This document shows positions 4,537 to 36,809 of a DNA stretch of 64,000 bases, piece by piece. The notes below the pieces were generated by a model. That model was not told where the DNA came from. It did not search any database and saw only the letters and a program-made list of their open reading frames with translations. Source of the DNA: Phyllosticta citribraziliensis (taxonomy: Eukaryota); contig NW_027117338.1 in assembly GCF_038025025.1 (NCBI RefSeq), positions 2,604,001 through 2,668,000 of the forward strand, given 5' to 3'. Both the position numbers and the translations under genes were made by a program. How positions within the stretch are numbered: position 1 is the first letter of the stretch; every line of letters begins with the position of its first letter.

Positions 4537-5593
<1,057 letters not shown>

Positions 5594-8485: not shown

Positions 8486-8924
8486 CGTACTTCGCAGGCT
8501 TGGACAGGAAACGCAGTAGGTCCTCTTGACGCATGGACTTTGACAGGCGCTGGTGGTGCGGCGGGGTCTGCGTGGCTGGTTACAGCCTGGCAGCGAGAAG
8601 GGCACAGGAGACGAGTGTTTCTGCCAGCGTGACCGTTTGCAGGGACGCGACAGTCAGGGCGACGAAGGGTTCCCGCGTCAGTCAAAATTTGACTTGGTCG
8701 GACGCGGTGGGCGGCGTGGGAGTGGAGAGCGTTGGCCTGGGCGTGCAACGTCAGCGCCAGGCTGGGGGCACCGGACAGGCAGCGAGGACAGAGGGGGGCG
8801 GGAAGGGGAGCCGTACCTCTTCTTGCACAGTGTGTGTGTGTATGGTAAGGGGAGAAGCAGAGTTTTGAGGGATTTTGATTGAGCGAGAGAGCAGAGGGCG
8901 CGGGCTTCCAGTCGACAGTCGTGT

Positions 8925-8947
8925 GCCAGAGCCAGAGCCAGAGCCAG
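8925..8947. repeat. (GCCAGA)n microsatellite, about 3.8 units
   Basis: gccagagccagagccagagccag read directly from the sequence. Confidence 0.8.
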
Positions 8948-9330
8948 TGCAGGTGAGGATTTTCGGCTGGGTGAAGTGGGAGGTTAGCTAAGCAGCCGCC
9001 GCGACATGATTTGCTAGTGCTGATACAGCCTGCAACGTCGAGGAATGGGATTCGTCGCCCGGGCCAGTTTCGTACCGATACATGTACCAATCTGACGTCA
9101 GGCCGGCCGACCCTGGTCACCGCCTTCAGTTGGACGGTGCCAGGTACGATGCAGCGCCGCCGCTCCGATCCAACGTCTGGTGAAGCGGATACGCACAGCA
9201 TACATGATCCTCGGCCCTAAAACGCCCCCTTGTCCCACCGCAGGCTGTCCCATTCTATACCGTCACCTCGTTCTCTCCTCTGCTCTGCGTTTCCCCAGCA
9301 TTCTTCACCCCACACCAGCAACCTTGTCTC

Positions 9331-9356
9331 GACCACACTCGACCACACTCGACCAC
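9331..9356. repeat. 10-bp tandem repeat (GACCACACTC) x2.6
   Basis: gaccacactc gaccacactc gaccac. Confidence 0.75.
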
Positions 9357-10664
9357 CCACCTACAAAGCCCCGCCTCGACGACCATGCTGAACCACACAA
9401 TCCCCCGTGTCCGTCGGCCGGCTTCATCTCCGCTCTGCCTTGGAAACACCCGCCACTCGTCTACCGCTCCATTGACATGAAGCACACCCGGAAATCACGG
9501 CATCGGCAAGTCGGACTATCGCCGTAGAATCCAACACGGTGTCGAAACACCCTGCTCCTACATCCAAACGTGAAGACCAACCGAAGGACGAGTCACGACC
9601 ACACCAGCACACTGCCCCTGGTCCAAACGCCGCCTCTGTCTGAGCATCAATCATTTCGTCAGTCGCGTCCCGCAAGCCGACCGCACGCTTGCTTCCCTTG
9701 CGCGTTGCGGCTTTCCGTCCATGGCTGGCTGGCCAAGCCTCGACGCGGCTCTGCCACCAAAGCTTGGTATCGCGCTGCCGCGACCCACCAAAGCAGCCAG
9801 GGTCCGTCGAAACATTTGCCCTCAGCAGGTCCCCAAGATTGGAGAGAAACGAAAGGCAGCCCGAGTCTCAACAGCCGGCCATCATGCGCAGCAGACCTCA
9901 CGGCACCAGAGACATCATCACCTCGTCCCGAGCATCGCCATGCGTGTGAATGCTCACTAATGCTGTGTCGCCGTCGCGGTGCTGTGGCAGTTGGACAATG
10001 CATTTCAACACAATGGTGCTTGCAAATCCGTCCCTTTCTGAGATGAGATGTAGATGCGCCGGGAGTAAGAAGCCAAGCCTCACTGACCGTTGTTGCCGCG
10101 CGCCCGCTTTGTGCGTGCCAGACCTGTCTCACCACAAACCATATAATCAGGGCCCACTCAAATGCGGATTCGATACAGAGATGAAGCTGAACTCAGCCTC
10201 TGACTGCACGCTTTGGGTAGGTCCATCCGTGCTCTAAAGGTCTTGCGTTGCCATGTTGTGATTGGAGCAGACGTGGATCAAGTCGTTGGCCTTTGATGCA
10301 ACAGTAGCCATTCGCACCTCAATGCGGCGGATTGTGGGTCATACAATAGGCATTCTTTATTCTTTCCCCAAGGTATCAAGCGCCAGGTTTGCAACCATGC
10401 AATGCCGCCGCTGCACCACCACCACCACCGAGCACACATGTATGTACGTACAGTCCAAACAAAACTACCGCCAGGTGCGCCCAACTAGCAGCCGCGCCGC
10501 ACTCCAAACCTCATGCTCGAAAGAGTGCCATGTCCAACGGCTCAATCTGCTTGCATGCAAAAACGCCGGCCATGCTCTCGGTAACAAATATACAGCTCTA
10601 GAACAGGACCTCGTGCAAGCCAAAGCTTCACTGGCCAGCCTTTAATGCTTCCTCTCGCCAGCGC

Positions 10665-13578: not shown

Positions 13579-14146
13579 GGTAGGCAAGAGGTCGGGGCTA
13601 AGTGGGCATCCGGTCGCGGGATGTTGTGCTCATGCCCATGGGGTGTGGGTGCGGGTGTGGGTGAAGAGAAGATGCAACGAAGGCGAGCACTGCAGGCTGA
13701 GGTGCGTCCGGTGTGGAGCCAGTTGAGGGTCGGGAGTGTGGGAGTGCGGCGTCACTGCTGCCAGCCAGCAGGGCAGGGCACCGCATGGATCCCGGCGGCC
13801 ACTCTCCGGCCCGGCTGCGCTAACGACGACCACCTACAATGACGGGTGCCGGTGCCTCGACGTCTCTCACCTACGTCTTCTCTCAACCACGGTTCTCGCT
13901 TTGCTCCACGCCATCTTGACGGGACCCCGACCACGAACCCACGCTCTGCGCCTGTTGGGAATGCCTCGATCGCCTACGTGAACCTCACTCCTCGCCGTCC
14001 GACCTCCGCCACCGTCCGCTCTCTGCCAAACTCGAGTCAGACTTTCACAACGATTACAATCCACACGATAATTCACAACAACTACCATCCACGCTCAGAG
14101 CCCACGTCCATCGCCCACTCCTTCAACAAAACACCGCTCTTTCAAC

Positions 14147-16582: not shown

Positions 16583-17341
16583 TTTAAAGGATCATGGCCG
16601 CCAAAGGCCTCGACAAATTGACAATTTCAGTATCATAGCGACGGCGTAATGGGCGATTCTTGGTTGGGTGCTTAAATTTGGTCGGAATGGGGCGTTGAAC
16701 TCGGAGGCAGATGAATGCTTCATACCCATTCAAAGTTAGCATACAAAAACATCTGGGGCGTTCTGTCCTTCATCTTCAGTTTTCATTCATGACACATGGC
16801 TTGAAGGGTTTCCGGTTAGAGTGCTATTGCAGACTTGGATCTTCCTATGAAAGAAGATGGGTCGATTATTTGCCAAATTTTCAGTGTTTAGCTTTCACTT
16901 GGATTCACTTCGGACTATCTGTTTGGCGTCTAATCACCTTTCTGAGCCCACCTACCAAATCCACTTTTCGTCTCCATCTTCCCTTCACGCAACTGCATTC
17001 ACAACACCAGCCTGAATCATCGCATGCGGACGACGTCCAATCCCATTCCAACAGGGAGGAGTCAGATTTGACCATCACACCCATACGCCTACAACCCAGT
17101 GGTTCATCAAAGAAACACTGATATCGTCGTTCCGTCTTGCAACCTCTTACCGTCACAAGCCTGCGCCCATTGCAAAATTGTTCAAACAAACTTCAGGCGC
17201 CGTCTCAACTCCTCAAGCACCAACCCTCACGACGCGGTGACTCAACCAAGTATCTGCAGGGGCCGTCTCGTCCCAACTGGCTCCGGTCGGCTTTCACTTC
17301 AAACACCAAGTTTCTGTTCGCTACTGAGCCAGTGCTTCGAC

Positions 17342-19135
17342 ATGTCACCGACTTCCGACACGCCTTTCACCAGCAACTCGCCGATCGTGCGCAACATGGC
17401 TGCTCGGGCTTCGCAGTCCTTCGCCATGTCACCGACTTCCGACACGACTGTCGCCAGCAATTCGCCATTCGTGCGCAACTTGATCGCTCGGGCTTTGCGC
17501 CGAGCTCCTAGGATGGACGCATCCGCTTTCAACATCACCCCCAGCCAGCTCCCCGTCGCGGAAGAAAACAACGAGGCTTCAGAAGGGGCCTCCACGTCCA
17601 CCGGTCGCCTCTCAGGTAAGTCAACTCTCCCACCCCCTCACACACAGACTGCCCGTCGCCTCAATGTTTTGGAGGCTGACCGCACTCTTTCAGGCAATAC
17701 CCTCGGGTCCAACAGGAAGCGTCGCGCTTCGGCTCTCGAGGGCACCGCCGCCAACAGGCCGCAGCACTCCAATCGCACCCCAGCCCCAGTCGCGATCGAG
17801 AACGAACTTGAAGACTACGACGAAGAAGAGCGCAATGGCAGCATTGTAACTGGCTCGGGAACTCACGCGAATGAGCTCGAGGATTACAACGAAGAAGAGC
17901 GCAACGGTAGCGTCGTCGCCAGCCCGCCAATTCACACGAACGAGCTCGAGGATTACAACGAGACCCTCGGCAACAGCAGCAATGCGAGCCTCCCACCCAG
18001 CCCGAAGAAGCTCTGCACCGGCCTCAGCAACAAGGTCCTGGTCATTGATGGCGAAAAGTTCTTGTTGCCAGAGGGACGTGGCGATGTGGTGACGCTCGAG
18101 CACGATGAAGCCATGTTCGGACGTCTCGGTCACACGATGCGTCCCAAAGTCATCGTCATTGATGGTCAGAGGTTCCTCCTTCCACGCGGTGGAGGAGAGG
18201 TGGTGGCAATGGGACGGGATGAGCGCATGTGGATGGAAGAGGTGCAGCAGCGCGAGTTCGACTACGCTGGTGTCGAAGAGGGAGACCGCCAGCAGGAGCA
18301 AGAGACCGATACGGAGTTGGAAGATTGGATCAACAACTACCACTGCTACATGGACAGCCGCGATGGAGAAGGCCAGGTGCTTCAAGACGAGCAAGGACTG
18401 CAGAAGGAGCATGAAATTAACGACTTGGACCAATTCCGGTCAGAGGAGCCCGGAACCACGTACTTGCCCAACGTTGAAGAGGGGGAGCAGACAATGCAGA
18501 ACGACACCACTGGACCGTCTTCGGAGAACTCCTTGTGCATTTACTGCGGAGAGTACCACTTGTCAGAGCAGAGCGACTGTGAGGATTCCGAGTCGAACGC
18601 TTCTGAACCGGCTTCAGAGAACTCTTTGTGCCCACAATGCGGAGTATACCATCCGCCAGGACAGATGGAAAGTGATGCTTCCGATTCTGACACTACTGAA
18701 CCATTGGGGTACTTCTTGTGCAATAATTGCGGGGAATACCACCTTCTGTCAGAGGATGAAGAAGAATCCACGGAATCCGATGAACATGAAGATTCAAGTG
18801 TGTACGACAACCAAGACGCCAATTTCGAGGCTGACATCAACAATGACGAAGTCCCGCCCACCGATTCTGGCTACGACAGCGAGATGGACGAGGAGGACGA
18901 TTCCGACTCTTCCGATTCCTCTGACTCTGACTCCAGCTTGGGCTCCGACGAATCGGTCGACTGGGACTACGACTACGACAACGTCGGCGGTGGCAACACC
19001 AATGCGCAGGCCCCAGCCCTTGTCGTCGACGATCCCATCCTCTACGGACCTACGGACTTGCCCGAGGGTCATGTGCGCGGCGACATGATGTTTGTAATGA
19101 ACGGCGAGCTATGGGGCATCGACTTCAGAAACTAG
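17342..19135 (+). CDS. Hypothetical acidic, repeat-built protein with three CxxCGxYH motifs
   Basis: Frame open 17099-19135; first ATG at 17342 gives about 597 aa. Internal repeats preserve frame with mostly synonymous or conservative differences. No recognisable family. Confidence 0.7.
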   Translation: MSPTSDTPFTSNSPIVRNMAARASQSFAMSPTSDTTVASNSPFVRNLIARALRRAPRMDASAFNITPSQLPVAEENNEASEGASTSTGRLSGKSTLPPPHTQTARRLNVLEADRTLSGNTLGSNRKRRASALEGTAANRPQHSNRTPAPVAIENELEDYDEEERNGSIVTGSGTHANELEDYNEEERNGSVVASPPIHTNELEDYNETLGNSSNASLPPSPKKLCTGLSNKVLVIDGEKFLLPEGRGDVVTLEHDEAMFGRLGHTMRPKVIVIDGQRFLLPRGGGEVVAMGRDERMWMEEVQQREFDYAGVEEGDRQQEQETDTELEDWINNYHCYMDSRDGEGQVLQDEQGLQKEHEINDLDQFRSEEPGTTYLPNVEEGEQTMQNDTTGPSSENSLCIYCGEYHLSEQSDCEDSESNASEPASENSLCPQCGVYHPPGQMESDASDSDTTEPLGYFLCNNCGEYHLLSEDEEESTESDEHEDSSVYDNQDANFEADINNDEVPPTDSGYDSEMDEEDDSDSSDSSDSDSSLGSDESVDWDYDYDNVGGGNTNAQAPALVVDDPILYGPTDLPEGHVRGDMMFVMNGELWGIDFRN

Positions 19136-21880: not shown

Positions 21881-22227
21881 GATTGCTGTATTGATGGAAG
21901 AGGGTCTTCTGGAAAGAGGTGCTGTCGAAAATTCCGCGCGTTGGTGGTGGACGTGTTTGCTCTCGATGACGCGCGGGCCAGTCGTGGTTGAAATTCCGGG
22001 GAGCAATCGGCTGAAATCCGGCAAGAACGCTCGAGCTCACGCCGCCCGCCACGCCCGGCGCGCATCGTCAAGATCTCATCACGACAATACATCTTCGCAG
22101 TCTCAACGCGCCAACACGTCTCCCCTTGCACTCCTTACGCCGATCGCTACCGCCGCAGCTCTCTGCCTCGACGGGACCTTGGCTTCAAGGACACATCTCA
22201 CTGCGTTGATACAACGCGCCATTCGTT

Positions 22228-23797
22228 ATGATCCTAGAAGAGCAGAGGCTCCTCCATGAGGACATTGAGCGCTTGGAGCAGGCCATTGCAGAGCGCACGT
22301 TGGAGGAACCCAAGAATGTAAGCAGCTCATACTTATTTGTCAACTTGAAGTAACCTCGAATGCTAAGGGACGATGCGCTAGATTCGAGAACGCCTCAACC
22401 GCGACCATCAGATTGCCAACTTTTTGAACCGCATTCAGCACCAGTCAACACGGCTTTTACAAATTTACGCAGACGACGATGGACAGCGCCTAAAGGAAAT
22501 CCAGACCATTTCAACAGGTGATCCGTTTGAAGAATTCTACAAGGAGTACTCTTCGATCAAGGACTTTCACAAGCGCTACCCGAACGAACCCGCCGAGAAC
22601 TTGGAGCGCGCATACAAGAGACGCGCACATGGCGAACCAGAGCCGATGAGGGTGGACGCCACCAAAATGTTCACTGGAGAAGAGGGATTCGGACGCTTCT
22701 TCGACTTGAATCTCCTGCACGAAACATATCTCAACCTGCCCGGCGTCAAAAACACGCGCCGGATCCCGTACCTTCAGTATCTTGAAATGTTCGACCAGTT
22801 CACGCCGCCTCAGTGTCCGCTCAAGAGACCTGACAAGCTGACAGATGCCTACTTCCAATACCTGACCAACCTGGCTGCGTATCTCGAAGACTTTATGAGG
22901 AAGATTAAGCCCTTGGAGGACCTGGACAGGCTCTTTTCAGAGTTTGACAAGGAATTCGAAAGCGCATGGGAAGCGGGCAGCATTCCGGGCTGGGAGAAGC
23001 AAGAAGCGAAGACTGGCGCGGCCGGACCTACCGAGGGCACAGGCTCGGGCTTTTGGTGTGCTGACTGCCAGAAAGAGTTTGGTAACGAAAACGTTTTCCA
23101 GCATCATTTTTCGAGTAAAAAGCACAAGAAGGCCGCTGCGGAAAACGCCAATGGAGGGGAGAACGGAGCTTCGAACGGCACGTCGGCACCAAAGGTGACG
23201 GGGCATTCAGTCAAGGAGAAGGCAGTCGCTGCGCGAGAATTCCGCATCAAGAAGCTTGCCGGAGCGATGCAGACGGAGCGCAGTGATACGCGCGTCAATG
23301 TGGAGCGCAGGATGGGGATGACGGAGCGGGAACGCCAGCAAGAGCTGGAAGCACTATTCAATGACGAAGAAGAGGTGGTCCAAGAAGCAGAAAACGAAGA
23401 GGGTGCCGAAGACAAGATTTACAACCCGCTCAAGCTGCCCATGGGATGGGACGGCAAGCCTATACCGTTCTGGTTGTACAAGCTGCACGGACTAGGCAAC
23501 GAGTTTCCGTGTGAGATTTGCGGAAACTTCGTCTACATGGGGCGACGGGCCTTTGACAAGCACTTCACCGAGGGCCGGCATCTTTACGGACTTCGGTGTC
23601 TGGGCATCACCAAGGACATGTCGCTATTCAGGGAGATCACGGGCATCGATGAGGCGCTCAAGCTGCACCAAAAGCTCGAGGCGGAGAAGAAGAAGTCGAA
23701 GCAGGCCATGGAAAACGTGGTGCAGATGGAGGACGCGCAGGGCAATGTGATGCCCGAAAAGGTCTACTACGACCTGCAAAAGCAGGGTCTACTCTGA
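22228..23797 (+). CDS. PRP9: U2 snRNP SF3a subunit 3 (Prp9/Sap61), 2 exons
   Basis: MILEEQRLLHEDIERLEQA; intron 22318-22381; YNPLKLPMGWDGKPIPFWLYKLHGL, CEICGN..YMGRRAFDKHF zinc finger, and YYDLQKQGLL C-terminus. Confidence 0.96.
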
Positions 23798-24995
23798 AAT
23801 GCCCCTTGGGCAGACACACACCATTCCGATTCCAGAATCAGCTTGTAGCTGGGGAGACTGTATCGAATTTCTTGCGCACTCGGATTTCATGGGCGAAGCT
23901 CGATACGTGCATTATCAATGTGGGATTTTGGCGTTTCGCGGATCACAGGCGGCCAAGGGGGAAGAAAGGTGGTTGAATTCAAAAAAAATGAGACAGTTTG
24001 CGGCGAAGGCTCGAAGTGAGGTTGATCATGGTGACAGGGCGGGGTGGGTGTCGCAGAGGAGGGAATACAAGGCCGACAGCGGAGTCCGGGTTCTGGAGGA
24101 TACAGAGAGGTGGTGTTAGAACAGAGGATGCGGTGCACACCCATTGCGGCAGGTGGAGGTTTTGAGGTCAGGGCTGGCTGCAAGGTTTGCCCTGACTGTT
24201 TCAGCGCAAGCATCAAGCTTTTTCCCAGTGGAGATCCGAATTCCGGACGTTTATCGGAACGGGTATGTCCCCAGTGATCGGCATTAAGCCGAGGGGTGAC
24301 TTTTTGGGGGGCCGTGTGTGGAGAAGGGGTGAGGTCAGACGTCGTGTAGCCAGTGCAAGAGGCTCCTGTCTCATGGCGGTGAGCCAACGGTTTTGGACAA
24401 AAGATGACTTTTCATGCAGAGCGCAAGTCGTCATTCCTTGCATCGACGGTTCCTGGGTCGAAATGCTTCTTTCTCTGCGGTTTCGCCTCGCGCGTGGGTC
24501 CGCGGTTACAAGCAAACGAGGTCGCGGCAGTCTTTATAGCAGGCTTTCACAACCACTTGAGCTCCGAGGATAGGCTCTCGTCGAACGCAGGCACTGCTGA
24601 GGATCTCCGGACGGACGCCAGGACTAATGAGCCAGAACCTGGAATTGGAGCCACAAGATTTCCTGCCAAGTGGTACGAGGGTGAGGGGCCCAATAGCATG
24701 AAAGTCGCTGGCGGATGCACAATTTCTACGTCCCGGCCAAAGGGCATGGCGCCCAACTCGTGGCACGGCCGCGCATGAAGGAGGAACACAGCAGCGTCTC
24801 CTGTTACCGCGTCTTTGGAATGGCGGCGCGCATTCTCGTCGACGCAGCCCGCGTTTGAGCACAGTTTCTATTTGAGAGACGAAGTCATGATTGCCCGCTT
24901 ATCATGCATGGGTCGATGGAGTGCTGAGCGAAAGCCGGGTGAGTGACGGACCAGAGAGATTTTGAGGCAGCCAGCTAAGCTGCAGCCACAACTAT

Positions 24996-26042
24996 TCAAT
25001 ACGGATCAAAAAACTTTTGGACCAAAGAGCTATTGCTTCCCCCAAACTCATTCAGCACGAGCTGCAGCAGAATTCGCGCCTTTTGCGGATTGTAGTTGCC
25101 CGAGTTCAAATAGCTGTACTCGCCAAGGGTCAAATTGTCCTTTCCCGGCGCAACATAGCTCGACCCCGTCCGGCTGGACCTCATGATTGGAACTCCCGAC
25201 TCTGTCCAGTACTTTGCAATCTCTTTCCACGTGGTCGGGAGTGATCCGTCACCAGTACACGCGACCACGATTCCTTTGGCACCATTGGAGATGGAATTAT
25301 TGACAAGCGTGACGTCCGAGTCAATGTGGCCGTATAAAATGTCGACTTTCGGGAGAGAGTCGACCCCGGAAATGTCAAAGAAGGGCTTCTTGTACGCTCT
25401 CGCTGGATAGTAGTAAAAGACGGGAGTCTTGTCGTTAAACACTCCCAAATATCCTTGCTCTACTGCCTTAAACGTGTCCACGGAGCGCGTGTTGGTCTTG
25501 GTGGTGTATACAGCAGAGCCGATCCGATCATTCAGCGTCATCATGACGCCGCGGTTGATAGCAGTTTTTGAAGACGCCAACGCTACTGCTTCATAAATGT
25601 TGAAGGGGCCGTCGGCACTTAAGGCTGTTGATGGTCTCATTGCTGCCACCATGGCAACTGGCGCAGACATGTCGTAAGTAACATCCAGGAAAAAGGCAGA
25701 CTCCTCCAGCGTATCCGTCCCGTGAGTAATAACGATGCCCTCGGCGCTGCCATTGGAGATGAGGGTCGTGACTAATTTTGAAAGCCGCAGGAGTAGAGAA
25801 GTATTCATGTTTTCACTCCCAATGTTGGAGAATTGGACGCCATTGATTTGGGCAAGGTCCTTGACTTCAGGAACCGCGTCGATCAGAGCGTCGACCGCCA
25901 ATTCCGAATCTTTGTAATTGGTCGTCGAAGTGGAGGATTTTTGGACTCCTGCGATTGTCCCGCCAGTTGCGATGATGGTGACATGGGGCAAATCGGCAGC
26001 AGAGGCACAAAATGCTGCGAAAAGGAGAATTGTGAGTTTCAT
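24996..26042 (-). CDS. Secreted type II L-asparaginase/glutaminase (Asp3-like), intronless
   Basis: Signal peptide MKLTILLFAAFCASA; catalytic motifs ATGGTIAG, ITHGTDTLEES, AMRPSTALSADGPFN, TKTNT and YNPQKARILLQL; several N-X-S/T sequons. Confidence 0.95.
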   Translation of the reverse strand: MKLTILLFAAFCASAADLPHVTIIATGGTIAGVQKSSTSTTNYKDSELAVDALIDAVPEVKDLAQINGVQFSNIGSENMNTSLLLRLSKLVTTLISNGSAEGIVITHGTDTLEESAFFLDVTYDMSAPVAMVAAMRPSTALSADGPFNIYEAVALASSKTAINRGVMMTLNDRIGSAVYTTKTNTRSVDTFKAVEQGYLGVFNDKTPVFYYYPARAYKKPFFDISGVDSLPKVDILYGHIDSDVTLVNNSISNGAKGIVVACTGDGSLPTTWKEIAKYWTESGVPIMRSSRTGSSYVAPGKDNLTLGEYSYLNSGNYNPQKARILLQLVLNEFGGSNSSLVQKFFDPY

Positions 26043-26086
26043 TTTTAAACGACAATATGGCGCTCCCGCTTCCAGTGTCCAGCAGA

Positions 26087-26383
26087 TTTATAAACCGTCG
26101 ACCTTGGTATCTCCCCAAGCTCGTATTGTGTAGAACATCCAAGCCGTTGGAGTTCTACTGCGCATGCGACTTTTTGCGGAGGTTCAAGTCCGTTATCAGC
26201 GGCAGCCCCGTTTAAACTCGGGGTTGCAGGGACACCCGCAGACTACACAAGGCTTGTCCACCCTTATCTCTACGACGCTCCCCAATTTTGAGAGATGTTT
26301 CCCCGGTGTCAATGTTTCCCTGTCGACGTCAGGCTCTTGAATGTGTAAACAACGGGCACTATCTACGCTTGAAGCGCTTATCG
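26087..26383 (-). promoter_or_regulatory. Asparaginase promoter: TATA box plus four HGATAR (AreA/Nit2-type) sites
   Basis: TTTATAAA at 26087-26094. Minus-strand TGATAA 26193-26198, AGATAA 26264-26269, AGATAG 26359-26364, CGATAA 26378-26383. Confidence 0.55.
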
Positions 26384-26644
26384 CAACCGGCATCCATCTC
26401 ATCGATCCGGCGAATGATCTCATCTCCGTTCGAGGAGAATACACGACTCTTGGCCAATCGATCTGAGGTCTGCAGCGCCGGGAAACTGAACGTCCGGCTT
26501 CTGAACTCATCTGATCACTCGCGTGGCGCATCCACTCTTGTTCGCCAAGGACAGACACGGCTTCCCCGCACATCGATTCGATCGAACGGCAATCATCCTG
26601 TCGAATACCCATCCACCTTTGGAAGGCTTACCGGCTCAAGAATC

Positions 26645-28641
26645 ATGCCGCAACAGCAAGCAAGAAAGATCTCGTAGGTTTGGCCACTGCAGTACCAAAG
26701 CTTGCTAATGACCCAATCAGCTGCAAGCGATGTCAGATCCGCAAGGTACGAGATCATTCCTTGCATGACCCGCGAATAATCCCTGCTAATGGTTTCCAGT
26801 TGAAATGCTCACGAACAGACCCATGCAAGTCGTGCCTGGCCGCCGGGCAGTATTGCGAATTTCGCGACAATGACGCCAAACGCCGTCCAGTCTCCCACGA
26901 ATACGTCATGGCGCTGGAGAACAGGATTGCCTGGTTTGAAAACTTTGTTGGAAGGTTGAAACGAGCATCATCAGCCGACCGAGATGCAATGTTGGAGGAG
27001 ATGTCGCTTCATGACCATTTACAGCCAGCCCATGATGTGGACACGTCGAAAACCACCCGACTGTGGACGCCCAGCCTGCGCATGGAGTTTGGCGGGTCAC
27101 TGATTTACCACGGACCCACGAGTATCTATCAAATGAACGAAATGGACGACTTTCCAGTCCCGGCGCCCTCCGCTGAAGCTACCCGCTTGATATGCGTTGC
27201 TCAACATTTTGGCATTCAAGAAAGCTGGATTGAGCAAGGTCTTCAAGACTTTTTCAGATGGCAATATCCGAACTGTATGTTCATCTACCGAGAAGCGTTT
27301 ATTCGAGACCACTGCGGTAATCGGTATGGTGGTCGGTACTGGTCGCTGCCACTTCTTTACTCCATGTGCGCGCTTGGAATACGAAACTCGGACGTTGAAA
27401 ATGCTGAAGATATGAGCGAAAGGTTCTTTGCGGCTGCCGAGTCAATCTCTATGGTCTCTGGTCTTGACAAGCCTTGCCTCACGACTGTTCAAGCGTTTCT
27501 CTGCATGGCCTTTTTCGAAGTCGGACGCGGAAATCTTTCCAAAGGATGGAATCTTTCAGGTATGTGGCGACTACGTGTCAGAGACGAGTCTGACCGCATC
27601 AGGAATCGCCTTTCGAATGAGTCAAGATCTGGGTTTGCAGCGCGACCCAAACCACTGGATTTCCAAAGATCCTTCCCTCACCAGTTCTGAAGATGTACAA
27701 ATCCGCCGTCGGATATACTGGGGAGCATATCTGTCAGACAAGTACTATCTGAAGGGCAAGAATCCGGCTAATCGTGTGAAGACTGATCAGTCTGTTCTTG
27801 GGAAGACCAGTCTCCCTTCACGAAGATGATGGAATGGTCGAGCCGATGGACAAATTACCGTGAGCATTTGCGGAATGGAATGTATCGACTCGGGCTGACG
27901 AATCAGCGACTTTCCGGAAATGGCGCCTTGGCTGCCCACGGGTCTTGAGCAATTCCAAAATGAGACTGAACCAACTGCAGTACCGCAACTCCTGCCCTCC
28001 TTCCAAAGCCTGGTCGAATTGGCCAAAATAATTCAACGTATGCTCACCAGCTACTTTGCGGCGGATGAGAAGAGCGCGGATGGTCAAAGTGCGAGCCAAA
28101 GTCAGATGTTCCTTGACTCGTTGAATTTGGACCTCCACCGGTGGCAAGAGTCTCTCCCAGACCCGCTGAAATGGAACAAGTGGGAGCCCACGACGGCATA
28201 CTTGTATCCCCACGTGGCAGTACTTCAGTGAGTTTCCCTTTCCACTTTTCCGCATTTGCTGACATTCTCAGCCTTATCTTAAACAGCGCCCGCCTTCGCT
28301 TGAACCTCGACGTCGCGGTGTCAAACAGCTCAACTGCGGCAAGCTCCAGATCCATGTGCCTTTCATCGATCGAAAACATCATTGCCTTGATACGAAAGTA
28401 CAGGGCGCAACACGGACTCAACAAGGCTTCACTCATTTTTGTGTATGGAATCGTGCAAGCAGCGACTGGAATCACTGTGCTCGAACAAACCGCACCTTGC
28501 GCTTCAACTCCACTACCAAGCACCTCGCAGCTGAACTTTTTGATACAGTCTCTGGAAGAGTGCTCTGCGACTTGGGGTCTGGCCACACAAGCAAAGAAGC
28601 GACTGGTTGTGGCTGCAGAAGCAATGACTCTGATGATTTGA
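26645..28641 (+). CDS. Zn2Cys6 transcription factor with fungal-specific middle homology region (NirA/Cha4/Tea1-like), 7 exons
   Basis: Spliced zinc cluster CKRCQIRKLKCSRTDPCKSCLAAGQYC; TTVQAF, GWNLSGIAFRMSQDLGL and RRRIYWGAYLSDKLISLFLGRP. Introns 26674-26720, 26746-26799, 27560-27602, 27742-27781, 27860-27907, 28228-28271. Confidence 0.9.
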
Positions 28642-28676
28642 ATCTATGGACAATTCTACCACAGACGACGCTCACT

Positions 28677-29915
28677 CTATCTCTGCAAACCCTTGTCGAG
28701 ACCCAGTTGCAAGACGTCAGCCAGCCGCTCGACATCCTCCAAGTTGTTGTAGAAAGAAAACGACACGCGAATCCCTAGACGGTAGTGCTGCACATAAATC
28801 CCGTGCTCTCGGAGATGGCTCTCCCAACCCGATTCCAACAAGCCCAGAATGTACAGATGCGGCGCGTGTCTTTCTCTGGATACGGGGCCGACGATTTCGA
28901 TCCCGAGCTGGTCGCACTTGCGTCGGAGGTCCTCTCCAAGGAAATAAAGATAGTCCTCGACCTTTTCCGGACCCATGGTATCAAGAAAGAAGGAGAGCGA
29001 TGCGTGGGCGGCGGACGCGGCGACGAAGGAAAGATTGAGATGCTCGTAACGACGTGCCGTGGGATGGTAGATGATTCGGTCTGACGGCGCCATGAGGTCT
29101 GCCCGCACGTTGGACACGGCGCCGTACCCGACGATTGGTGGATTGGGTCTCAAGGACCGCAAAGTCAAGGGCTCGACATACAGACATGCAAAACCAATTG
29201 GGCAGTTCAATCCTTTGTGGAGACTGAAGGATGCAGCAGACACACCAAGAGCTTGCACGTCGACAGCTGCAAACCCGACCTGCTGGGTCATGTCGACCAA
29301 GACGTGGATTCCTTGAGGTCTGAATGTGTCGCAGATGTCTTTGACGTTGTTCCTTTGGCCTGAATGAAACATGATGGAAGAAATTCCAATCGCTCTGGTC
29401 CGGTCGTCGACGTACGGGGCAAACGTAGACGCGTCGGCAAAACACTCTTCCCCTGACACTTGTCGGACCTCGAGACCAGCCGAACGCATGGAAAGCCATC
29501 CGTACGCGTGGTTGGGATGTTCCGTGTCGAGTATGACAACATTGTCGCCAGGAGCAAAGTCCATGGACTTGATGAAGTAGTTGAGGCCTTCTGTCGTGTC
29601 GCGGGTAAAGGCAATGTTTTCTGGCTGGGTGTTGATGTAACGCCCAACGAGTCCGCGGACCTGCTCCGTCCTTTCTTGCCATTTGGACTTTGGAGTTGGC
29701 GAGTTCGTGGCCTCATCAAGGAATAGATCGATTGCGTCGCGGATGAGGGTGTTGCATGGAGGAGCAAATGAAGAGTTGAGGTAGGTAACTCCTGGCTGAT
29801 TGACCAGAGGGACTAGCTTGCGGAATTGACTGAATAACGAAGGCAGGTCGGATTTGTGATCGCCATTCGAAAGAGGAAGCATTTTGGGATGAAGAGTCTT
29901 GGTTTGAACCGACAT
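28677..29915 (-). CDS. PLP-dependent class V aminotransferase-fold enzyme (cysteine desulfurase/CefD-like), intronless
   Basis: YLNSSFAPP, FTRDTTEGLN, EHPN, VDMTQQVG, SLHKGL (PLP lysine) and IRVSFSFYN. Start taken at M41 of the 452-aa ORF; the exact start is uncertain. Confidence 0.88.
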   Translation of the reverse strand: MSVQTKTLHPKMLPLSNGDHKSDLPSLFSQFRKLVPLVNQPGVTYLNSSFAPPCNTLIRDAIDLFLDEATNSPTPKSKWQERTEQVRGLVGRYINTQPENIAFTRDTTEGLNYFIKSMDFAPGDNVVILDTEHPNHAYGWLSMRSAGLEVRQVSGEECFADASTFAPYVDDRTRAIGISSIMFHSGQRNNVKDICDTFRPQGIHVLVDMTQQVGFAAVDVQALGVSAASFSLHKGLNCPIGFACLYVEPLTLRSLRPNPPIVGYGAVSNVRADLMAPSDRIIYHPTARRYEHLNLSFVAASAAHASLSFFLDTMGPEKVEDYLYFLGEDLRRKCDQLGIEIVGPVSRERHAPHLYILGLLESGWESHLREHGIYVQHYRLGIRVSFSFYNNLEDVERLADVLQLGLDKGLQR

Positions 29916-30355
29916 GCTAAGTTGCAGGTTGGAGGGCGATGTGATTAAATCGGACTCTCCCACGGCGAATCGACCTGAATTTGTAGTCTCAGCCCATGGA
30001 GTTTTCTTCCAACTTTGAGCACGAAAATATTTCATGGCCTGCCATGATGCTCAAATCCCGAGAAGGGCAAGTGGGGCATGGAGGGCCAACCCCGAAGTGC
30101 CCTATCGGATTTGCACATGGAGCGGCCCGCACATGAGGCGCTCCAACTCCGCACCCGTCACTCGCGGACTTCAACCTCCGTCGCTCATCAACGTGTCATT
30201 TCTCGCTCAAACTTCACCAGAGGCTCAAGATCACGAGATAATGTCAAGGTTGTCGCCTCCGCCGCAACTCCGCAGAAATGCGATAAGGTTGGGACGATAT
30301 TAATACCAGCGCGACAGCAGCACGCCACCGTTCCAACTCAACTTCTATTCCCACC

Positions 30356-32098
30356 ATGGACCGACACTCCACAGAGGCGACTGTCAAAGACCCTTCGACG
30401 GACGAGACTCGAATCTGTTCAGATGGCGTTGAAATCGGACAGGTCCAAACGAGGGACAGTCTTCACCGCGACTTCAAGTCTCGACATGTCTCCATGATTG
30501 CTGTCGCCGGCGCCATTGGCACGGGACTGATCATTGGATCCGGCACCGGACTTGTCAGAGGAGGCCCAGCGAGTCTGTTCATTGCCTACTCCATCATTGG
30601 TGCTGCCGTCTACTTCCTCATGACGGCGCTGGGAGAAATGGCAACGATGCTCCCAATGGACAAGGGGTTTTCCGGCTATGCCACACGATTTGTTGATCCT
30701 GCACTGGGGTGCGTAAACCAGTCGATCATGAGGGCAAAGCGCTGACATGACCAGGTATGCCACCGGCTGGAACTACTTTTTCAAATACGCCATTGTGCTG
30801 CCAAACAATCTGACTGCCGCCGGCATCATCATTCAGTACTGGAGACCAGATCTCAACGTGGCAATATTCATTGCATCCTTTACGGTAGTCATTGTGCTCA
30901 TCAACGTACGTCGTTCGACCTTCCGCCAACAGCACTGACGATTGCAGGTTTTGAATGTTTCCTTCTTCGGAGAAGCTGAATTTTGGATGTCGACCGTCAA
31001 GCTCATGGTCATGATCATGCTCATTCTTGCCTGTCTGATCATTTCACTGGGCGGGTCTCCGTCGGGCGATCGTATTGGATTCCGATACTGGAAGAATTCC
31101 GGCGCCTTTCAAGAATACCTCACAGACGGCTCGACCGGACGATTCCTCGGATTTTGGGCGTGCATGGTACAGGCCTGCTTTGCATACACCGGGACAGAAG
31201 TTGTCGGTGCTGCATTTGGCGAGACACCCAACCCAAGGAAGAACGTCCCCAAGGCTATCCGACAGACCCTGTGGCGTATTACATTCTTCTACGTCCTTGG
31301 CGTCTTCATCCTCGGAATGGCAGTCCCCAGCGACAATCCCAGGTTGATTGGAGGGACCAAGACGAAGGTGGGGGCTGCGGCCTCTCCTTTCGTGATTGCC
31401 ATCAGCCTGGCTGGAATAAAAGTGCTACCCGACATTTGCAACGCGTGCCTCCTCGTCTTTGTCCTCAGCGCGGCAAACTCGGATATATACATTGGCTCTC
31501 GCACGCTGTATGGACTCGCAAAAGACCACCAAGCACCACAAATACTCTACCGGACTTTGAAAAACGGAGTCCCAATCTTTGGCGTAGTCATGTCGTTGCT
31601 GTTCACATCCCTGGGCTACATGAATGTCTCCAAGTCGTCGTCCACCGTCTTTGGGTACTTCGTCTCTCTTGTCACAGTTTTTGGCACGCTCAACTGGCTT
31701 TCAGTCCTTCTCTCGTATTTGCAGTTCACCAGAGGAATGAGGGCTCAAGGTATTAGCAGAAAGATCATGCCGTATCGCGGTCCACTCCAGCCGTACGGAG
31801 CGTACTTTGCGTTGGTCATTACGATCCTGGTCACCTTTTTTAATGGTAAGATCCTGCCTCGGTAGCCGTGCAATTCGCTGACTGCCTAGGTTACAATGCT
31901 TTCATGCCAGAGTTTGCGCTGAGCAAGTTTTTGACGTGCTACATTGGCATCATTGTGTACTTGTTTAATATTTTCTTTTGGAAGTTTTTCAAAAAGACGA
32001 AGATGGTCGACTTGACGGCCATGGATCTGTACAGCGGCAGAACGGCTGACTGCGACCTGGAAAGCTCCAGCGCAAGGTGGCCGTGGTTGAAGAGGTAG
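30356..32098 (+). CDS. Amino acid permease (APC/YAT family, Dip5-like), 4 exons
   Basis: RHVSMIAVAGAIGTGLIIGSG, FGEAEFW, IGFRYW, FAYTGTEVVG and ASPFVIAI. Introns 30709-30754, 30906-30947, 31846-31889. Confidence 0.94.
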
Positions 32099-33959
32099 CG
32101 GAAACCCATTTCGATTCGCTCGTTGTTCATGAGAGGCCGTGAAAATCGTCAATGAAACATGATTCGCCAATCTTTTGACACTTATTGCTGTACGATTTCT
32201 TTCGACAAAGCGCGTCGCCTGTCTCCTTTGCTCAGCATCTGCAAAAGTCAACATCCTATCCGCCATTCCGAATCTCTGGGTAAGTCTCACATTTTCTCCC
32301 TTCAGGACTAGTCCTGACGAGCGCGGCCCCTGTCTTTGGACGTTGACCCCCAGCGGGAGCGAAGTGGAGTTTCAGTATTACGGTCTCACTTTGCAGGTGC
32401 GAGATGGTTTCCAGTTCATCAAAACGTCGGCGGCACTGTAGCCAATCAGCGTGGAAAGAGCCAAAGACGTTCCAGACACGTGATCTCCTGTAATGTTCCC
32501 CGCAGCACGTGATCTTCAGGCAACACCTACAGGTCCGGGCAGGTATGGTACGTACTGGTACTGGAAGGCACTAAGTAAGCCAGCATACCTACTATTTCAG
32601 GCAATTGACTCTCAGCTCAATTCTGCTCCCTCCGCCGGGTTTCTTCATCAACGGCGTGTCTCCCGCTGTCGACGTTCCACATATTTCGTCGGTAATCTTG
32701 GCGGGAGGCAGTGGAAGCGAGAGAGCGGCCGCGCGGCCAGGGGTATCTTCTCTGGCCATGGAACTCATCTCTCTCTTGTCCAACGACATGTAACGACAAG
32801 CCAACGGCGACCAGGGCGCGGTACGAAGCTTTGGCGGAGACAGCGAGACGTGAAACGGGCCGCGCGAGGTACAGTGCATGACATTTACATATGTACATGC
32901 GTCTGCGGCGTCGCCCGCATGCATACCGACGGCGACCACCAAAGGGTTTTTTCGTCTTGCCAGCCGACGGCGGCCGAGATGACGATCGCGTCAGGAGTCG
33001 TCCGTGTGGTGGGACGCTCGGCAACGGAGCGAGCGAAGGGACCGGCTGATGGGCCGGACGGAAGAGGCTGAGCAGTGAGCACCCAGGCACGGCATCATCA
33101 ACACCACAAGGACAGACGAATGATGGGCGTGTTTCCCTCCGGGCGCTGCTGGGCCGACCAGGGCTTGGGGCTAGCGGCCAAGCTGCCGAGCGGTGGTGCA
33201 AGCCGATTGGTAGAATGCTCAGCGTTTCACACCGGCCATCATCACGCAGATACAAACGCCAAAGCGCTGGGCCAGGAATGGGCAATTCGTGTATCAGGGA
33301 GATTTCCAGTGGAGATCCGTCCCGTCTCAGGCCAACGTGTAGCCCCAGTCGTGCTTTTTCCTTGACCCCATTCCGAATCATCATATCCCTATCCCAAACC
33401 ACCTCCCCTTGCTTCACGCCGCCCTCCACTCGCTCCTTTTGCCGTCGTGTCTTGACTCTCGCTCCCCGCCCCCTCCAACCTTCGCTTTTCCTCGTCCGTT
33501 CCGTTGCATTCATTCTCTCGCCGACGACACGGCGCCTTTGGATCCTTTCTCCCCCCGGCTTCCTGGACTTCGACACGAGCGTCGACGCCATCTCCGATAC
33601 ACTGTCCCTCCCCGGTGGATACAGCACGGGCATTGTTCAATCAAATCTAAAGGAGTAGGACTGTGCCGGCTGCAGCTTGGGTTTAAAGGAGCTTTTCCTG
33701 CTGTAGGGCTGACCGAGACCTCTCCAACTTCACCTGTCACGAGTCCGAATTAACACTGTCACAAGCAGGACCGCTGCGCTTCTACGCCTGCCTGCCATCC
33801 TGTGATAGTCCGTGCCTCCGTGACCGTCCGTTTTTCTTCAACTTGGCGCATCGCCCGCCATCCACTCTTTTACACCGACACTCGCTCGTTTGACCTCAAC
33901 CTCGCCGTCGCGCCGCCGTCTTTCATTCGCTACCTCAACACCATTACCCTCTCGCCGCT

Positions 33960-35538
33960 ATGAAGTATCACCTCGCATCCGGCGCCCTCGCCGCCCTCTC
34001 TCTGGCGGGCACCGCCAATGCCTTTTGGCGCATGCCTTGCCGTGGCCGCACCGCCCTTGAGCGCGTCGACCCCATCGTCGACCCTGGCAAGATTTCAAGC
34101 CACGCCCACTCCGTCCAGGGTAGCGGCGCTTTTGCTGAGTCGGTCACCTTTGATGACTTACGCTCCTCCAACTGCACTTCGTGCCAAGTCACTCAGGACA
34201 TGTCGGCGTACTGGTAAGCTTCGCCCAATGCTTCTGAGAGACTTCAAGCGCTGACACTTCGCGACAGGGTTCCTTCACTGCATTTCATGTACGCCAACGG
34301 AACCACTGTCCTTGTCCAACAAGATGGCGGCATGCTTGCGTAAGTAGGACACCGTCTGGCAAGCAAACCTCAAGCTGAACCCTCTCAAGCTACTACCTCC
34401 TGTACGGCGACGACCCCAAGGCCTTCCCACCCGGATTCCGCATGCTTGCTGGTGACCCGTTCCAGCGCAACTTCACCGGACTTGCTGTCCCAGACCCCGC
34501 AAAGCCGTGGACTGGCAAGGATGTCACCCAGGATGCCCTGAGGCTCAAGGCGCTCGGCTTCAACTGCCTTCACTACTCGGTCAACCCGCCCGAGGGCACT
34601 CTCTACCGTCACTTCCTGCCCGACAAGGACTTCCTCGATGAGAACTGCTCGGACGGCCTGCGTCTCGAGCTCATGTTCCCATCCTGCTGGAACGGCAAGG
34701 ACCTCGACTCGGACGACCACAAGAGCCATATGGCCTACCCTGACCAGGTCATCACCGGCGACTGCCCCAGCGGCTACGAGACGCGCCTCGTCTCGCTTCT
34801 CTACGAGGTGATCTGGAACACCCAGGCCTTCAAGGGTGTCGACGGCCAGTTCGTCCTGTCCAACGGTGACCCGACCGGTAAGCTCTTTGGTGACACTCTC
34901 AAGTTGAACAACATTAACGCCGCCTAGGTCACGGCTACCACGGTGACTTCATTACCGGCTGGGACGAGGATTTCCTCCAGAGTGCCATCAACACCTGCAC
35001 TTCCGAGAGCGGTGAAATCGAGGACTGCCCTCTCTTCAACATCCAGAGCGAGGCCGACACGCAACTCTGCAAGGCCGAGGTTCCTGAGGCCCTGGCAGAT
35101 GACAATTGCGAGGGCCCTAACCCCACTGGCATTTGTGGCGGCGTTCAAGTCCAGTACGGTCCCGCGTACGCCACCATGGGCTCATCCAACTCGAGCGCAA
35201 CTGCCACTACCGCCCCGTCCTACACTGGAAGCACTCCTCTGGTGCCGACGCTCTCGTACCAGACCAGCCAGAGGAGCTTTGCCAGCGACAAGTACGGCGG
35301 CGGTGTCACCATCGAGGCCGTCACCGGCGTCACTCCTGCGCCTTCGCCCACGCCCGTGACCACTGAACTGATCGGCACTACCACCTTCACGAGCGCCGGC
35401 GCCGTCTACGAGGTCGCCATTGAAGAAGTCGACGTCTACGTTACCGAGACTGCTACTGCCACGGCTGCAGCCAAGCACAAGCGCCACCTGCAGCGCCACC
35501 ATGCCAACCGCCGTGAGCACGGTCTGCTTGCCCAGTAA
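33960..35538 (+). CDS. Secreted DUF1996 domain protein, 4 exons
   Basis: Signal peptide; FWRMPC...RVDPIVDPG..SSHAH, CTSCQVTQDMSAYW, AFPPGFRMLAGD, LMFPSCWNG and GYHGDFITGW. Introns about 34214-34267, 34340-34389, 34878-34927. Confidence 0.9.
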
Positions 35539-36809
35539 GTGCGTGGATTTCGACCTTCTCTGCCTTTGAGCGCGTCTGCATATCAGGGACGGTGTCCAGG
35601 GCGCCTGCGGGGTTCTTTTACGTGCGACGAGGGCGGTTTCTTCCGGGGTCCTTTTCTTCTTCTTGCATTTGCCGTTGGCTTTCTTTTCTGGTTTCTGAAA
35701 ATATCCAAGCGTGAGGGCCTGGCTGAGCCCGCCTGGCGAAGCTCTTTTCTGTGTACAATATTAGTTGCAGCGTCGCTGCGGTACGTAGCCCTGCGCGTCT
35801 TCGCGGCGCCCTCTATCATGATGAAGACGGCTGTCGATACCAATGAGCAGCGCAGAAGGAGTGATGAGAGACGGATGGATGCAGTCAAAATTAGCTTCAC
35901 AGGGTCCCGTCAAGTTCAGGGTCCAGGTCCAGACGGGACGGGCGATGCCGATGCCGGCGGTGCGTGGTGGCGCGCCTCGAGACAAGCCTCCCCGCCTATC
36001 CATGACCGCCACACGCCCATGCGACAGATCACCTACTGCACTCCAACTGCCACCAGGCTTGGCTGCCGCACTCGGTTTGTGCCTACTTACTAATGGCCTT
36101 TTGCTGACTCCGTTCTGCATCCACGCGTCCAACCACTACATACCACCACCATGTGGCTGCCTGACGGCCAGAGAGTGGACCAGGTGACGTAGACTGCCGT
36201 GGCGATTGCAAACACCGAGCCTTTTCTATATCATGTCTTTTTTCTCCGACTGCTTCGTCCGCTTGCTTCTCTTACCCTCCATTTCTCCTCCCGTCGTTCC
36301 AAGACCACGCAAACCGTCGAGCCGCCTCGTCTTGCTTAGTTTCTGCTTACGCCCCTCTTCTCTAGGCAGGACCGCCGGCCAACTGCAGCAAACAGGGGTC
36401 GATTGGAACTTGGGAAGCTTCGACTCTGTCCAGCCTTTTGCCTCGCCGCATGCACCGGAAGCTTTGCGCCTAAACACCACACCGGCTGAGGCTGAATAAT
36501 TAAAATCCCGAAACCAAGGCAACCCGTTTCCCCAGCCCTCGACCATCCCAGCAACTCGACGCACCGGTTTTTGGGGGCCGTTTCCCAATTGTGTCGGTCA
36601 GACAGTCATTCAGCCCTGCGGTCAATCCCTGCAAGGCTGTGGCATGAGGCGCTAGGAAGACGTTTGCCCGCATCATCTCCACCGCTTTTGGGAGACCGAC
36701 CCACTCCAAGAGTATTGGGCACTAGGCAGCAACTGCTGGCTCATCGTTGTGTGTCTCGTTGTACCACAACACAAAGGCGGCCTCGAGGAGCCTCCAACCC
36801 GGGGTGAGA

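Follow-up and report, generated by a model that had tools for sequence, protein, structure and literature searches.

The four-gene block and its transcript support

The window analyzed here, by which we mean the whole 64-kb stretch of DNA from Phyllosticta citribraziliensis, has a guanine-plus-cytosine (GC) content of about 0.55 and genes with short GT..AG introns. The block of interest, at 24996-32098, encodes a type II L-asparaginase, a Zn2Cys6 transcription factor, a class V pyridoxal phosphate (PLP) enzyme of the SufS fold, and an amino-acid permease of the YAT family (Table 1). The original prediction placed these as four adjacent genes in two divergent pairs, asparaginase with regulator and PLP enzyme with permease, and this layout was borne out, with all four genes intact and located exactly where predicted. 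The PLP and regulator genes are convergent, with 35 bp between their stop codons, and further possible start codons of the PLP gene lie at 30035 and 29882.

Table 1. Genes, divergent promoters, and candidate regulatory elements of the block (positions in the window; aa, amino acids)
Feature	Position	Strand	Structure	Domains and remarks
Type II L-asparaginase gene	24996-26042	-	1 exon, 348 aa	PF00710, PF17763, TIGR00520
Divergent promoter, asparaginase/regulator	26043-26644			Between the two start codons; element copy 1 and four HGATAR sites
CGG-N10-CCG element, copy 1, CGGAGGTTCAAGTCCG	26177-26192	+	16 bp	135 bp upstream of the asparaginase ATG, 453 bp upstream of the regulator ATG
Zn2Cys6 factor gene	26645-28641	+	7 exons (26645-26673, 26721-26745, 26800-27559, 27603-27741, 27791-27859, 27907-28227, 28272-28641), 570 aa	PF04082; spliced in silico
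Class V (SufS-fold) PLP enzyme gene	28677-29915	-	1 exon, 412 aa	PF00266
Divergent promoter, PLP enzyme/permease	29916-30355			Element copy 2 and three HGATAR sites
CGG-N10-CCG element, copy 2, CGGAGGTTGAAGTCCG	30165-30180	-	16 bp	250 bp upstream of the PLP enzyme ATG, 176 bp upstream of the permease ATG
YAT-family amino-acid permease gene	30356-32098	+	4 exons (30356-30708, 30755-30905, 30948-31845, 31890-32098), 536 aa	PF00324

To check the gene models, Logan contigs of four public runs were mapped on 22000-36000; five runs match the stretch, and none is recorded as RNA. Runs X1 and X2 come from one organism (organism A) and are near-identical to the window, while X3 comes from another (organism B) and is about 96-97% identical over the listed pieces. 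Five of the six regulator introns are spliced out in the contigs (joints 26673>26721, 26745>26800, 27559>27603, 27859>27907, and 28227>28272), and intron 4 is visible only as a contig piece ending at 27741. All three permease introns are likewise spliced out (joints 30708>30755, 30905>30948, and 31845>31890). Since contigs of three runs skip GT..AG introns at the modelled coordinates, they stem from spliced RNA, which upholds the gene models. The contigs of organism B cover the flanking Prp9 gene through the asparaginase, the regulator and PLP genes, and the permease, indicating that all four genes exist and are transcribed in a sister species as well. The genes cannot be ranked by contig depth, which says nothing on co-expression, and the 5' halves of the asparaginase region and of the regulator, which are uncovered in X2, are uninformative.

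Further splice joints were seen in the same contigs. A canonical plus-strand intron of 75 nucleotides (nt) at 25722-25796 (GTGAGT...ACTAAT...CAG) lies inside the minus-strand asparaginase coding sequence and is skipped by an X1 contig that continues into the regulator exons; the contig would represent either spliced antisense RNA or a regulator mRNA whose long 5' leader extends over the asparaginase gene. A CT..AC joint at 32239-32290, which denotes a minus-strand intron just 3' of the permease stop codon, is present in X1 and X2 contigs and suggests a spliced, probably noncoding convergent RNA overlapping the permease 3' end; from 32100 to 33890 we found no convincing open reading frame and no Pfam match. 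In another run, X5 (organism C), a 2,030-nt contig (record 17), about 84% identical, carries a piece of the PLP gene (28911-29711) and a piece of the permease gene (31009-31699) that lie 243 nt apart, compared with 1,298 nt in the window; either the pair is shorter or rearranged in organism C, or the contig is misassembled.

Conserved linkage of PLP enzyme and permease in fungi

The permease matches PF00324 in exon 1 (1.8e-20) and exon 3 (5.1e-78), and TIGR00913 with 340 bits over exon 3 alone. Its exon 3 is 100% identical to a database protein of P. citribraziliensis, also of 536 amino acids, and its sole solved relative is a lysine-specific permease. Relatives that are 66-73% identical over exon 3 occur in Colletotrichum, Neonectria, Cytospora, Diaporthe, Dactylonectria, Clonostachys, Capronia, Dendryphion, and Elsinoe. 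The source name “dicarboxylic amino acid permease” is attached to 17 of the 120 listed permease relatives, with several species at 66-73% identity.

Linkage in other genomes was read from locus tags and equal contig sizes among the 120 listed relatives of the PLP enzyme and the 120 listed relatives of the permease. In Neonectria punicea, the permease (QQX98_004570, P0243, 73% identity) and the PLP enzyme (QQX98_004571, P0020, 61%) have consecutive tags on a contig of 181,815 bp. Among the matches listed, all five species that carry both a PLP relative and a permease of at least 66% identity have the two on contigs of equal size: N. punicea (181,815 bp), Colletotrichum asianum (365,469 bp), Dactylonectria macrodidyma (3,629,350 bp), C. 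karsti (722,723 bp), and N. ditissima (215,155 bp). Lasiosphaeria hispida, with a permease of 63% identity, also has its PLP gene on an equal-size contig, but one of 6.5 Mb. The consecutive tags and the five equal-size contigs thus indicate that the PLP-permease pair is a conserved unit across two fungal classes, Sordariomycetes and Dothideomycetes.

A cysteine-less family of SufS-like PLP enzymes

The PLP enzyme (PF00266, 3.5e-29) has 279 relatives at E values of 1e-5 or less, and all organism-named rows among the 120 listed are from Pezizomycotina. The closest are from P. capitalensis (84% identity) and Neofusicoccum parvum (70%), followed at 54-64% by proteins from many Fusarium, Colletotrichum, Diaporthe, Ilyonectria, Aspergillus, Penicillium, and Capronia. 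Their source names are inconsistent, including “cysteine desulfurase,” “selenocysteine lyase,” and “class IV aminotransferase,” and Atlas look-ups returned generic names only.

The closest solved structures are SufS/CsdB, with E values of about 1e-16 for the single sequence and down to 7e-25 for a family profile. C-DES, CsdA, and kynureninase come next, and EgtE and PvdN are also among the nearest; with the family profile, CsdA (4lw2, deposited as “cysteine sulfinate desulfinase”) is found at an E value of 2.4e-18 and human kynureninase, over its full length, at 4.5e-11. An AlphaFold model of the enzyme (pLDDT 84, pTM 0.83, with low confidence for residues 261-293) has as its best Foldseek match a SufS-type structure (5b7s, TM score 0.77), and the SufS-type structures are 19-23% identical in sequence. 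The invariant residues of the family are the PLP lysine in S-x-H-K (H-K-G-L), the aspartate of D-x-T-Q, which binds the pyridine nitrogen as in SufS-type enzymes, and a C-terminal arginine. Thus, the enzyme shares fold, PLP lysine, pyridine-nitrogen aspartate, and C-terminal arginine with SufS/CsdB, CsdA, C-DES, and kynureninase, but it differs from the SufS/CsdB group in its low identity and in lacking the stretch with the catalytic cysteine. That stretch is deleted throughout the family, leaving a 13-residue gap opposite “ghhca” of 7tlr, and it is also missing in comparison with 5b7s. No cysteine is invariant among 20 fungal members or among nine mixed fungal and bacterial members. The best NCBIfam desulfurase model, TIGR01979, scores 91.2 bits for the fungal protein and 122 and 134 bits for bacterial relatives, against a cut-off of 475. 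The deleted cysteine loop, the absence of an invariant cysteine, and scores far under the cut-offs therefore rule out that the enzyme is a cysteine desulfurase. The kynureninase model TIGR01814 gave no match for the fungal protein and 28 and 35 bits for bacterial relatives, against a cut-off of 246. Neither the 68 to 75 solved relatives nor the NCBIfam matches include an epimerase or racemase, although the libraries themselves may contain no epimerase.

Bacterial relatives of the PLP enzyme were collected by pattern scans. In metagenomes, 93 pattern matches led to one relative, on a bacterial contig, and to no fungal one; in bacterial genomes, 61 pattern matches led to 10 loci, six of them full-length. 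The resulting set comprises eight family genes in seven loci, one from a metagenome (L001) and six from genomes (L002 to L007), with a second copy in Pseudomonas. These proteins are 33-39% identical to the fungal ones and have long motifs in common with them. The family is sparse in bacteria: samples of 400 genomes (scored out of 401 drawn), 401 genomes, and 301 genomes gave no match beyond the starting genome, and this sampling is a floor, with four to six candidates scored per genome. On the metagenome contig, a GntR/FCD regulator, a polar-amino-acid ABC transporter, the PLP gene, and an aspartate ammonia-lyase gene (NF008909, 721 bits against a cut-off of 510) stand together. In Pseudomonas (L002), the first copy lies with an IclR regulator, an SBP_bac_3 protein, two permeases, and an ATPase, and the second is beside a DctA/GltP-like SDF symporter. 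The gene is accompanied by an M28 peptidase, an SDF symporter, and a GntR/FCD regulator in Amycolatopsis (L003), by an M20 dipeptidase, a GntR/FCD regulator, and the contig end in Streptomyces (L005), and by a GntR/FCD regulator and an enoyl-CoA hydratase in Pseudonocardia (L006); nothing telling is beside it in Lentzea (L004). In Korobacteraceae (L007), its neighbors are an alanine racemase, a second class V gene, an Asp/Glu racemase, an SDF symporter, and a threonine-aldolase-like gene.

In summary, an uptake system adjoins five of the eight bacterial genes, either a polar-amino-acid ABC transporter (metagenome contig and first Pseudomonas copy) or an SDF symporter (second Pseudomonas copy, Amycolatopsis, and Korobacteraceae); a GntR/FCD regulator adjoins four and an aspartase one. 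These uptake and aspartase neighbors match the fungal pairing with a “dicarboxylic” permease and suggest that the PLP enzyme acts on aspartate, glutamate, or a close analogue. SufS, CsdA, C-DES, and kynureninase have a common chemistry, the cleavage of the C-beta substituent via a ketimine, leaving alanine. Judged from these relatives, the most likely reaction on an aspartate-like substrate would be C-beta cleavage to alanine, that is, 4-decarboxylation or desulfination, with transamination as an alternative.

Two of the bacterial loci have features of their own. The two Pseudomonas genes, at 8001-9149 (+) and 14055-15203 (-), are 94% identical and about 5 kb apart, one located after the polar-amino-acid ABC transporter and the other before the DctA/GltP-like symporter. 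The Korobacteraceae locus (3151-9810), with its alanine racemase, two class V PLP genes, Asp/Glu racemase, SDF symporter, and GntG/threonine-aldolase-like gene, looks like an amino-acid, possibly D-amino-acid, catabolic island. Small open reading frames after the PLP gene on the metagenome contig and in Pseudomonas are unrelated to each other or to the window and look noncoding.

The Zn2Cys6 factor and an element shared by both promoters

The spliced regulator model contains an N-terminal C-X2-C-X6-C-X5-C-X2-C-X6-C cluster, which is interrupted by intron 2, itself confirmed by the contigs, and a middle homology domain (PF04082, 9.2e-14). No solved-structure relative was found for it, and its likeness to NirA/Cha4 consists of one automatic Atlas cluster name, “nirA (fragment)” (score 0.94, rank 2).

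Each divergent promoter contains one copy of a 16-bp element of the form CGG-N10-CCG, which can be written as CGGAGGTT-S-AAGTCCG; the two copies are identical at 15 of 16 positions, with the mismatch at the center, and the promoters share no exact k-mer of 10 or more. Allowing up to two mismatches, the element occurs twice in the 64 kb, both times in the divergent promoters, compared with an expected 0.13 occurrences, and none of 100 shuffles gave two matches. This pattern is derived from the data, however, and the fair test is how often any 16-mer matches at 15 of 16 positions between two such promoters, which occurred in three of 300 shuffles and in three of 234 pairs of real window segments. 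The whole window has 18 CGG-N10-CCG sites. Inverted CGG...CCG half-sites are typical of Gal4-type factors, and the element is a candidate site for the local Zn2Cys6 factor. No other evidence connects the asparaginase and the regulator with the PLP-permease pair.

A bacterial-type asparaginase with a patchy fungal distribution

The asparaginase matches PF00710 (3.8e-54) and PF17763 (5.5e-25) and passes the TIGR00520 model for type II asparaginases (373.5 bits, cut-off 314.3). Its closest solved structures are the Erwinia/Dickeya enzymes (E values of about 1e-85), and the catalytic threonines (TGGTIAG, HGTDT) and the second-triad lysine are unchanged in the alignment to the Erwinia enzyme. N-terminal to the residue aligned with position 3 of the mature Erwinia chain are about 17 hydrophobic, signal-like residues, and the protein is predicted from this N terminus to be secreted.

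Its homology was examined in the best 120 of 7,993 matches, to which the following comparisons refer. Six rows are fungal, one of them the window's own, and 101 are unnamed. The fungal relatives are from P. capitalensis (86% identity), P. citrichinensis (67%), Fusarium lateritium (62%), Neopestalotiopsis clavispora (61%), and Elsinoe fawcettii (58%). The remaining 13 organism-named rows are all bacterial, at 46-52% identity, and represent Pseudomonas, Burkholderiaceae, Xylophilus, Pectobacterium, Cupriavidus, Klebsiella, Pantoea, Leminorella, Vibrio, and Saezia. In a maximum-likelihood tree of the 120 asparaginases, the six fungal sequences form one clade (SH-aLRT 98) whose sister group is three unnamed sequences, with every named bacterium placed elsewhere. 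Being unrooted and having no canonical fungal asparaginase, the tree shows a single origin of the fungal group, not the donor. The lack of introns and the patchy distribution make an old bacteria-to-fungus transfer the probable origin of the gene, and later loss or fungus-to-fungus spread would explain where it is found today.

Evidence on the linkage of this gene elsewhere comes from contig sizes. In Elsinoe fawcettii, the asparaginase (P0126) and a permease (P0263, 67%) are on a contig of equal size (797,681 bp), as are the asparaginase (P0122) and the PLP enzyme (P0001) of P. capitalensis (1,571,495 bp). These same-contig pairs are hints that the asparaginase is linked in other species too. 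Within the block, it is probably an addition to the PLP-permease module, outside its conserved core.

Bacteria-to-fungus transfers of L-asparaginase have been reported in passages on Colletotrichum (PMC4320630, HGT7) and Verticillium dahliae (PMC6430987, HGT-25), which likewise concern bacterial-type asparaginases in plant-associated Pezizomycotina; as given there, these accounts describe no linked cluster. Neither Colletotrichum nor Verticillium is among the named matches of the Phyllosticta enzyme, and their transfers may be separate from the one in Phyllosticta.

A proposed asparagine/aspartate utilization cluster and its alternatives

We propose, with moderate confidence, that the block is a small cluster for the utilization of asparagine and aspartate (acidic amino acids), consisting of a PLP-permease core, a local Zn2Cys6 activator, and a recruited asparaginase. 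The secreted type II asparaginase would deamidate extracellular asparagine, and probably glutamine, the former to aspartate and ammonium, and the Dip5-like permease would bring the acidic product into the cell. There, the cytosolic SufS-fold enzyme, which lacks the desulfurase cysteine, would convert the imported acid, likely by C-beta cleavage to alanine in an aspartate 4-decarboxylase-like or desulfinase-like step, with transamination as the other option. The factor encoded in the block would activate both divergent promoters through the 16-bp CGG-N10-CCG element, and the bacterial-type asparaginase would have joined an older permease/PLP module. In this scheme we infer the substrates and the PLP reaction as well as secretion, co-regulation, and binding of the element by the factor. 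The earlier claim that the genes are functionally coherent gains support from the PLP-permease linkage, the bacterial uptake contexts, and the shared element.

Several findings weigh against this proposal. This type of asparaginase is found in just five other named fungal species, whereas dozens of Pezizomycotina have the PLP family and the permease, and the four-gene set is not general. The predicted co-location thus holds in part: the PLP-permease pair is linked in other fungi, but the set of four is not widely conserved. Fusarium lateritium, Neopestalotiopsis clavispora, and Elsinoe are absent from the 120 listed PLP matches, and the F. lateritium asparaginase (ACHAPJ_005246) is not near its listed permease (ACHAPJ_011797). 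Permeases of 63% identity or less are unlinked to the PLP gene, with distant tags in six species (F. nematophilum, _010317/_005642; F. ambrosium, _009548/_005139; F. piperis, _004307/_002188; Capronia coronata, _00643/_07634; F. phalaenopsidis, _00025/_12949; Clonostachys chloroleuca, _001554/_007888) and contigs of different size in five (Aspergillus mulundensis, Thozetella, Xylariales PMI_506, D. estremocensis, and A. pseudoustus); we take these permeases to be a general paralogue. Among the bacterial genes, three of eight (Lentzea, Streptomyces, and Pseudonocardia) have no amino-acid transporter alongside. The “Dip5-like” label of the permease comes from source names only, and the PLP reaction is deduced from distant relatives at 19-23% identity. 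The promoter element was found post hoc, and its chance level is about 0.01, no lower.

Two other readings concern how many of the four genes belong together. The PLP enzyme and the permease alone could be the functional unit, with the asparaginase and Zn2Cys6 genes as accidental neighbors and the factor regulating other genes; the conserved linkage was demonstrated for that pair alone, the asparaginase has a separate, patchy, bacterial-like history, and Zn2Cys6 genes are very numerous in Pezizomycotina. We nevertheless consider this unlikely, given that the 16-bp element occurs once in each divergent promoter and nowhere else in the 64 kb, that E. fawcettii has asparaginase and permease homologues on an equal-size contig, and that the product of asparaginase is the expected cargo of a dicarboxylic-amino-acid permease. 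A chance neighborhood of four unrelated nitrogen-metabolism genes with no common function, conceivable in fungi in which amino-acid permeases, Zn2Cys6 factors, and PLP enzymes are all abundant, is highly improbable in view of the PLP-permease linkage conserved across Sordariomycetes and Dothideomycetes, the parallel bacterial contexts, and the shared promoter element.

Other readings concern the chemistry. One example given in the original prediction is a route of extracellular D-asparagine deamidation, import of the resulting D-aspartate, and conversion to L-aspartate by the PLP enzyme, acting as a CefD-like epimerase or racemase. Some class V enzymes are epimerases, the family member in Korobacteraceae adjoins two racemases (alanine and Asp/Glu) and an SDF symporter, and the aspartase after the PLP gene on the metagenome contig would fit L-aspartate as product. 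Those racemases are separate proteins, however, so the PLP enzyme need not be one, the solved relatives and NCBIfam matches include no epimerase or racemase, and the asparaginase sequence has no sign of D-specificity. Both the D-asparagine route and the analogy with CefD are left unsupported by the nearest relatives SufS, CsdA, C-DES, and kynureninase, which cleave a C-beta substituent, and by the missing SufS cysteine loop; we regard this route as very unlikely. Sulfur scavenging or detoxification, with a permease that imports cysteine sulfinate or cysteate, a PLP desulfinase that releases alanine and sulfite, and an unrelated asparaginase, would accord with the presence of the desulfinase CsdA among the solved relatives, with a desulfination that needs no active-site cysteine, and with the acceptance of such analogues by acidic-amino-acid carriers. 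It appears improbable, as no sulfite exporter, sulfite oxidase, or other sulfur gene was seen at the eight bacterial genes or in the window, and the neighboring aspartase (metagenome contig) and asparaginase (window) point to aspartate itself.

A bolder version of the asparagine/aspartate proposal, which we find rather doubtful, is that the cysteine-less SufS-like proteins are an uncharacterized enzyme family of Pezizomycotina and a few bacteria that uses imported aspartate or asparagine in a novel class V reaction. This would be a kynureninase-like C-beta/C-gamma cleavage that yields alanine, either by aspartate 4-decarboxylation or from asparagine, with carbamate as the other product. In Phyllosticta, the module would have captured a bacterial asparaginase under one Zn2Cys6 operator, making it a chimeric, partly horizontally assembled endophyte pathway that acts on host asparagine.

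Relation to known systems

Fungal catabolic clusters with a pathway-specific Zn2Cys6 activator and a permease are known, for example, the prn cluster for proline utilization in Aspergillus nidulans. Like prn, the block groups a small number of neighboring genes around divergent promoters and combines a dedicated permease with catabolic enzymes, an in-cluster Zn2Cys6 factor, and CGG-type sites, here candidate sites, in the shared promoters. It differs from prn in its presumed substrates, asparagine and aspartate instead of proline, in its enzyme families, in having one bacterial-type, putatively secreted enzyme, in its intracellular enzyme, which comes from an uncharacterized family, and in that its regulation is deduced here. 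The cell-wall asparaginase II of Saccharomyces cerevisiae, ASP3, is a secreted, nitrogen-scavenging type II enzyme acquired from outside, as the Phyllosticta asparaginase probably is, but ASP3 is not known to have a linked permease, PLP enzyme, or regulator, and the Phyllosticta enzyme instead groups with proteobacterial Erwinia/Pseudomonas-type enzymes (46-55% identity) and with those of five other named fungal species. In bacteria, a periplasmic asparaginase (ansB), acidic-amino-acid transporters, and aspartase (aspA) follow the same logic of deamidation outside the membrane, uptake of the acid, and conversion inside, and the PLP family occurs in such loci, exemplified by the metagenome contig with its polar-amino-acid ABC system, PLP enzyme, and aspartase. 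In contrast to these, the block has eukaryotic gene structures, a proton-coupled YAT permease in place of ABC or SDF systems, and a Zn2Cys6 factor in place of GntR or IclR regulators. Cluster architecture of this kind is well known, and nothing here would overturn current ideas.

Our literature search found no paper on a cluster of an asparaginase, a Zn2Cys6 factor, and an amino acid permease, or on one of an asparaginase, a dicarboxylic amino acid permease, and a class V aminotransferase. In the comparative genomics of Phyllosticta (PMC9073689), the words asparaginase, permease, aminotransferase, and nitrogen are absent from the main text, and in PMC5545021 these gene names occur only within Gene Ontology tables. 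Passages in PMC3160796 and PMC9073689 describe Phyllosticta on citrus as comprising both endophytes and pathogens.

If our proposal is true, the block would give a leaf endophyte, which we take P. citribraziliensis itself to be, a simple nutritional trait: a self-contained module for deamidating asparagine outside the hypha and for importing and converting the product. Asparagine is a major nitrogen transport form in plants. The block also offers a candidate operator for an orphan Zn2Cys6 factor and, probably, another instance of fungi recruiting a bacterial asparaginase, and the conserved permease/enzyme pair gives an acidic-amino-acid context to a widespread PLP family that is now misleadingly annotated.

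Surroundings of the block

As predicted, the block is embedded among housekeeping and other unrelated genes. On one flank are an eIF4A-like DEAD-box helicase and SF3a60/Prp9, and on the other are a DUF1996 protein, a BCS1-like AAA ATPase, a sugar transporter, and an FAD-linked oxidase. Elsewhere in the window, a plus-strand open reading frame of 687 amino acids (17072-19132) has no Pfam match at an E value of 1e-5. The lowest GC content of the window is in the three 2-kb bins of 26001-32000, which hold the regulator, PLP, and permease genes (0.512-0.526, compared with 0.53-0.60 elsewhere).

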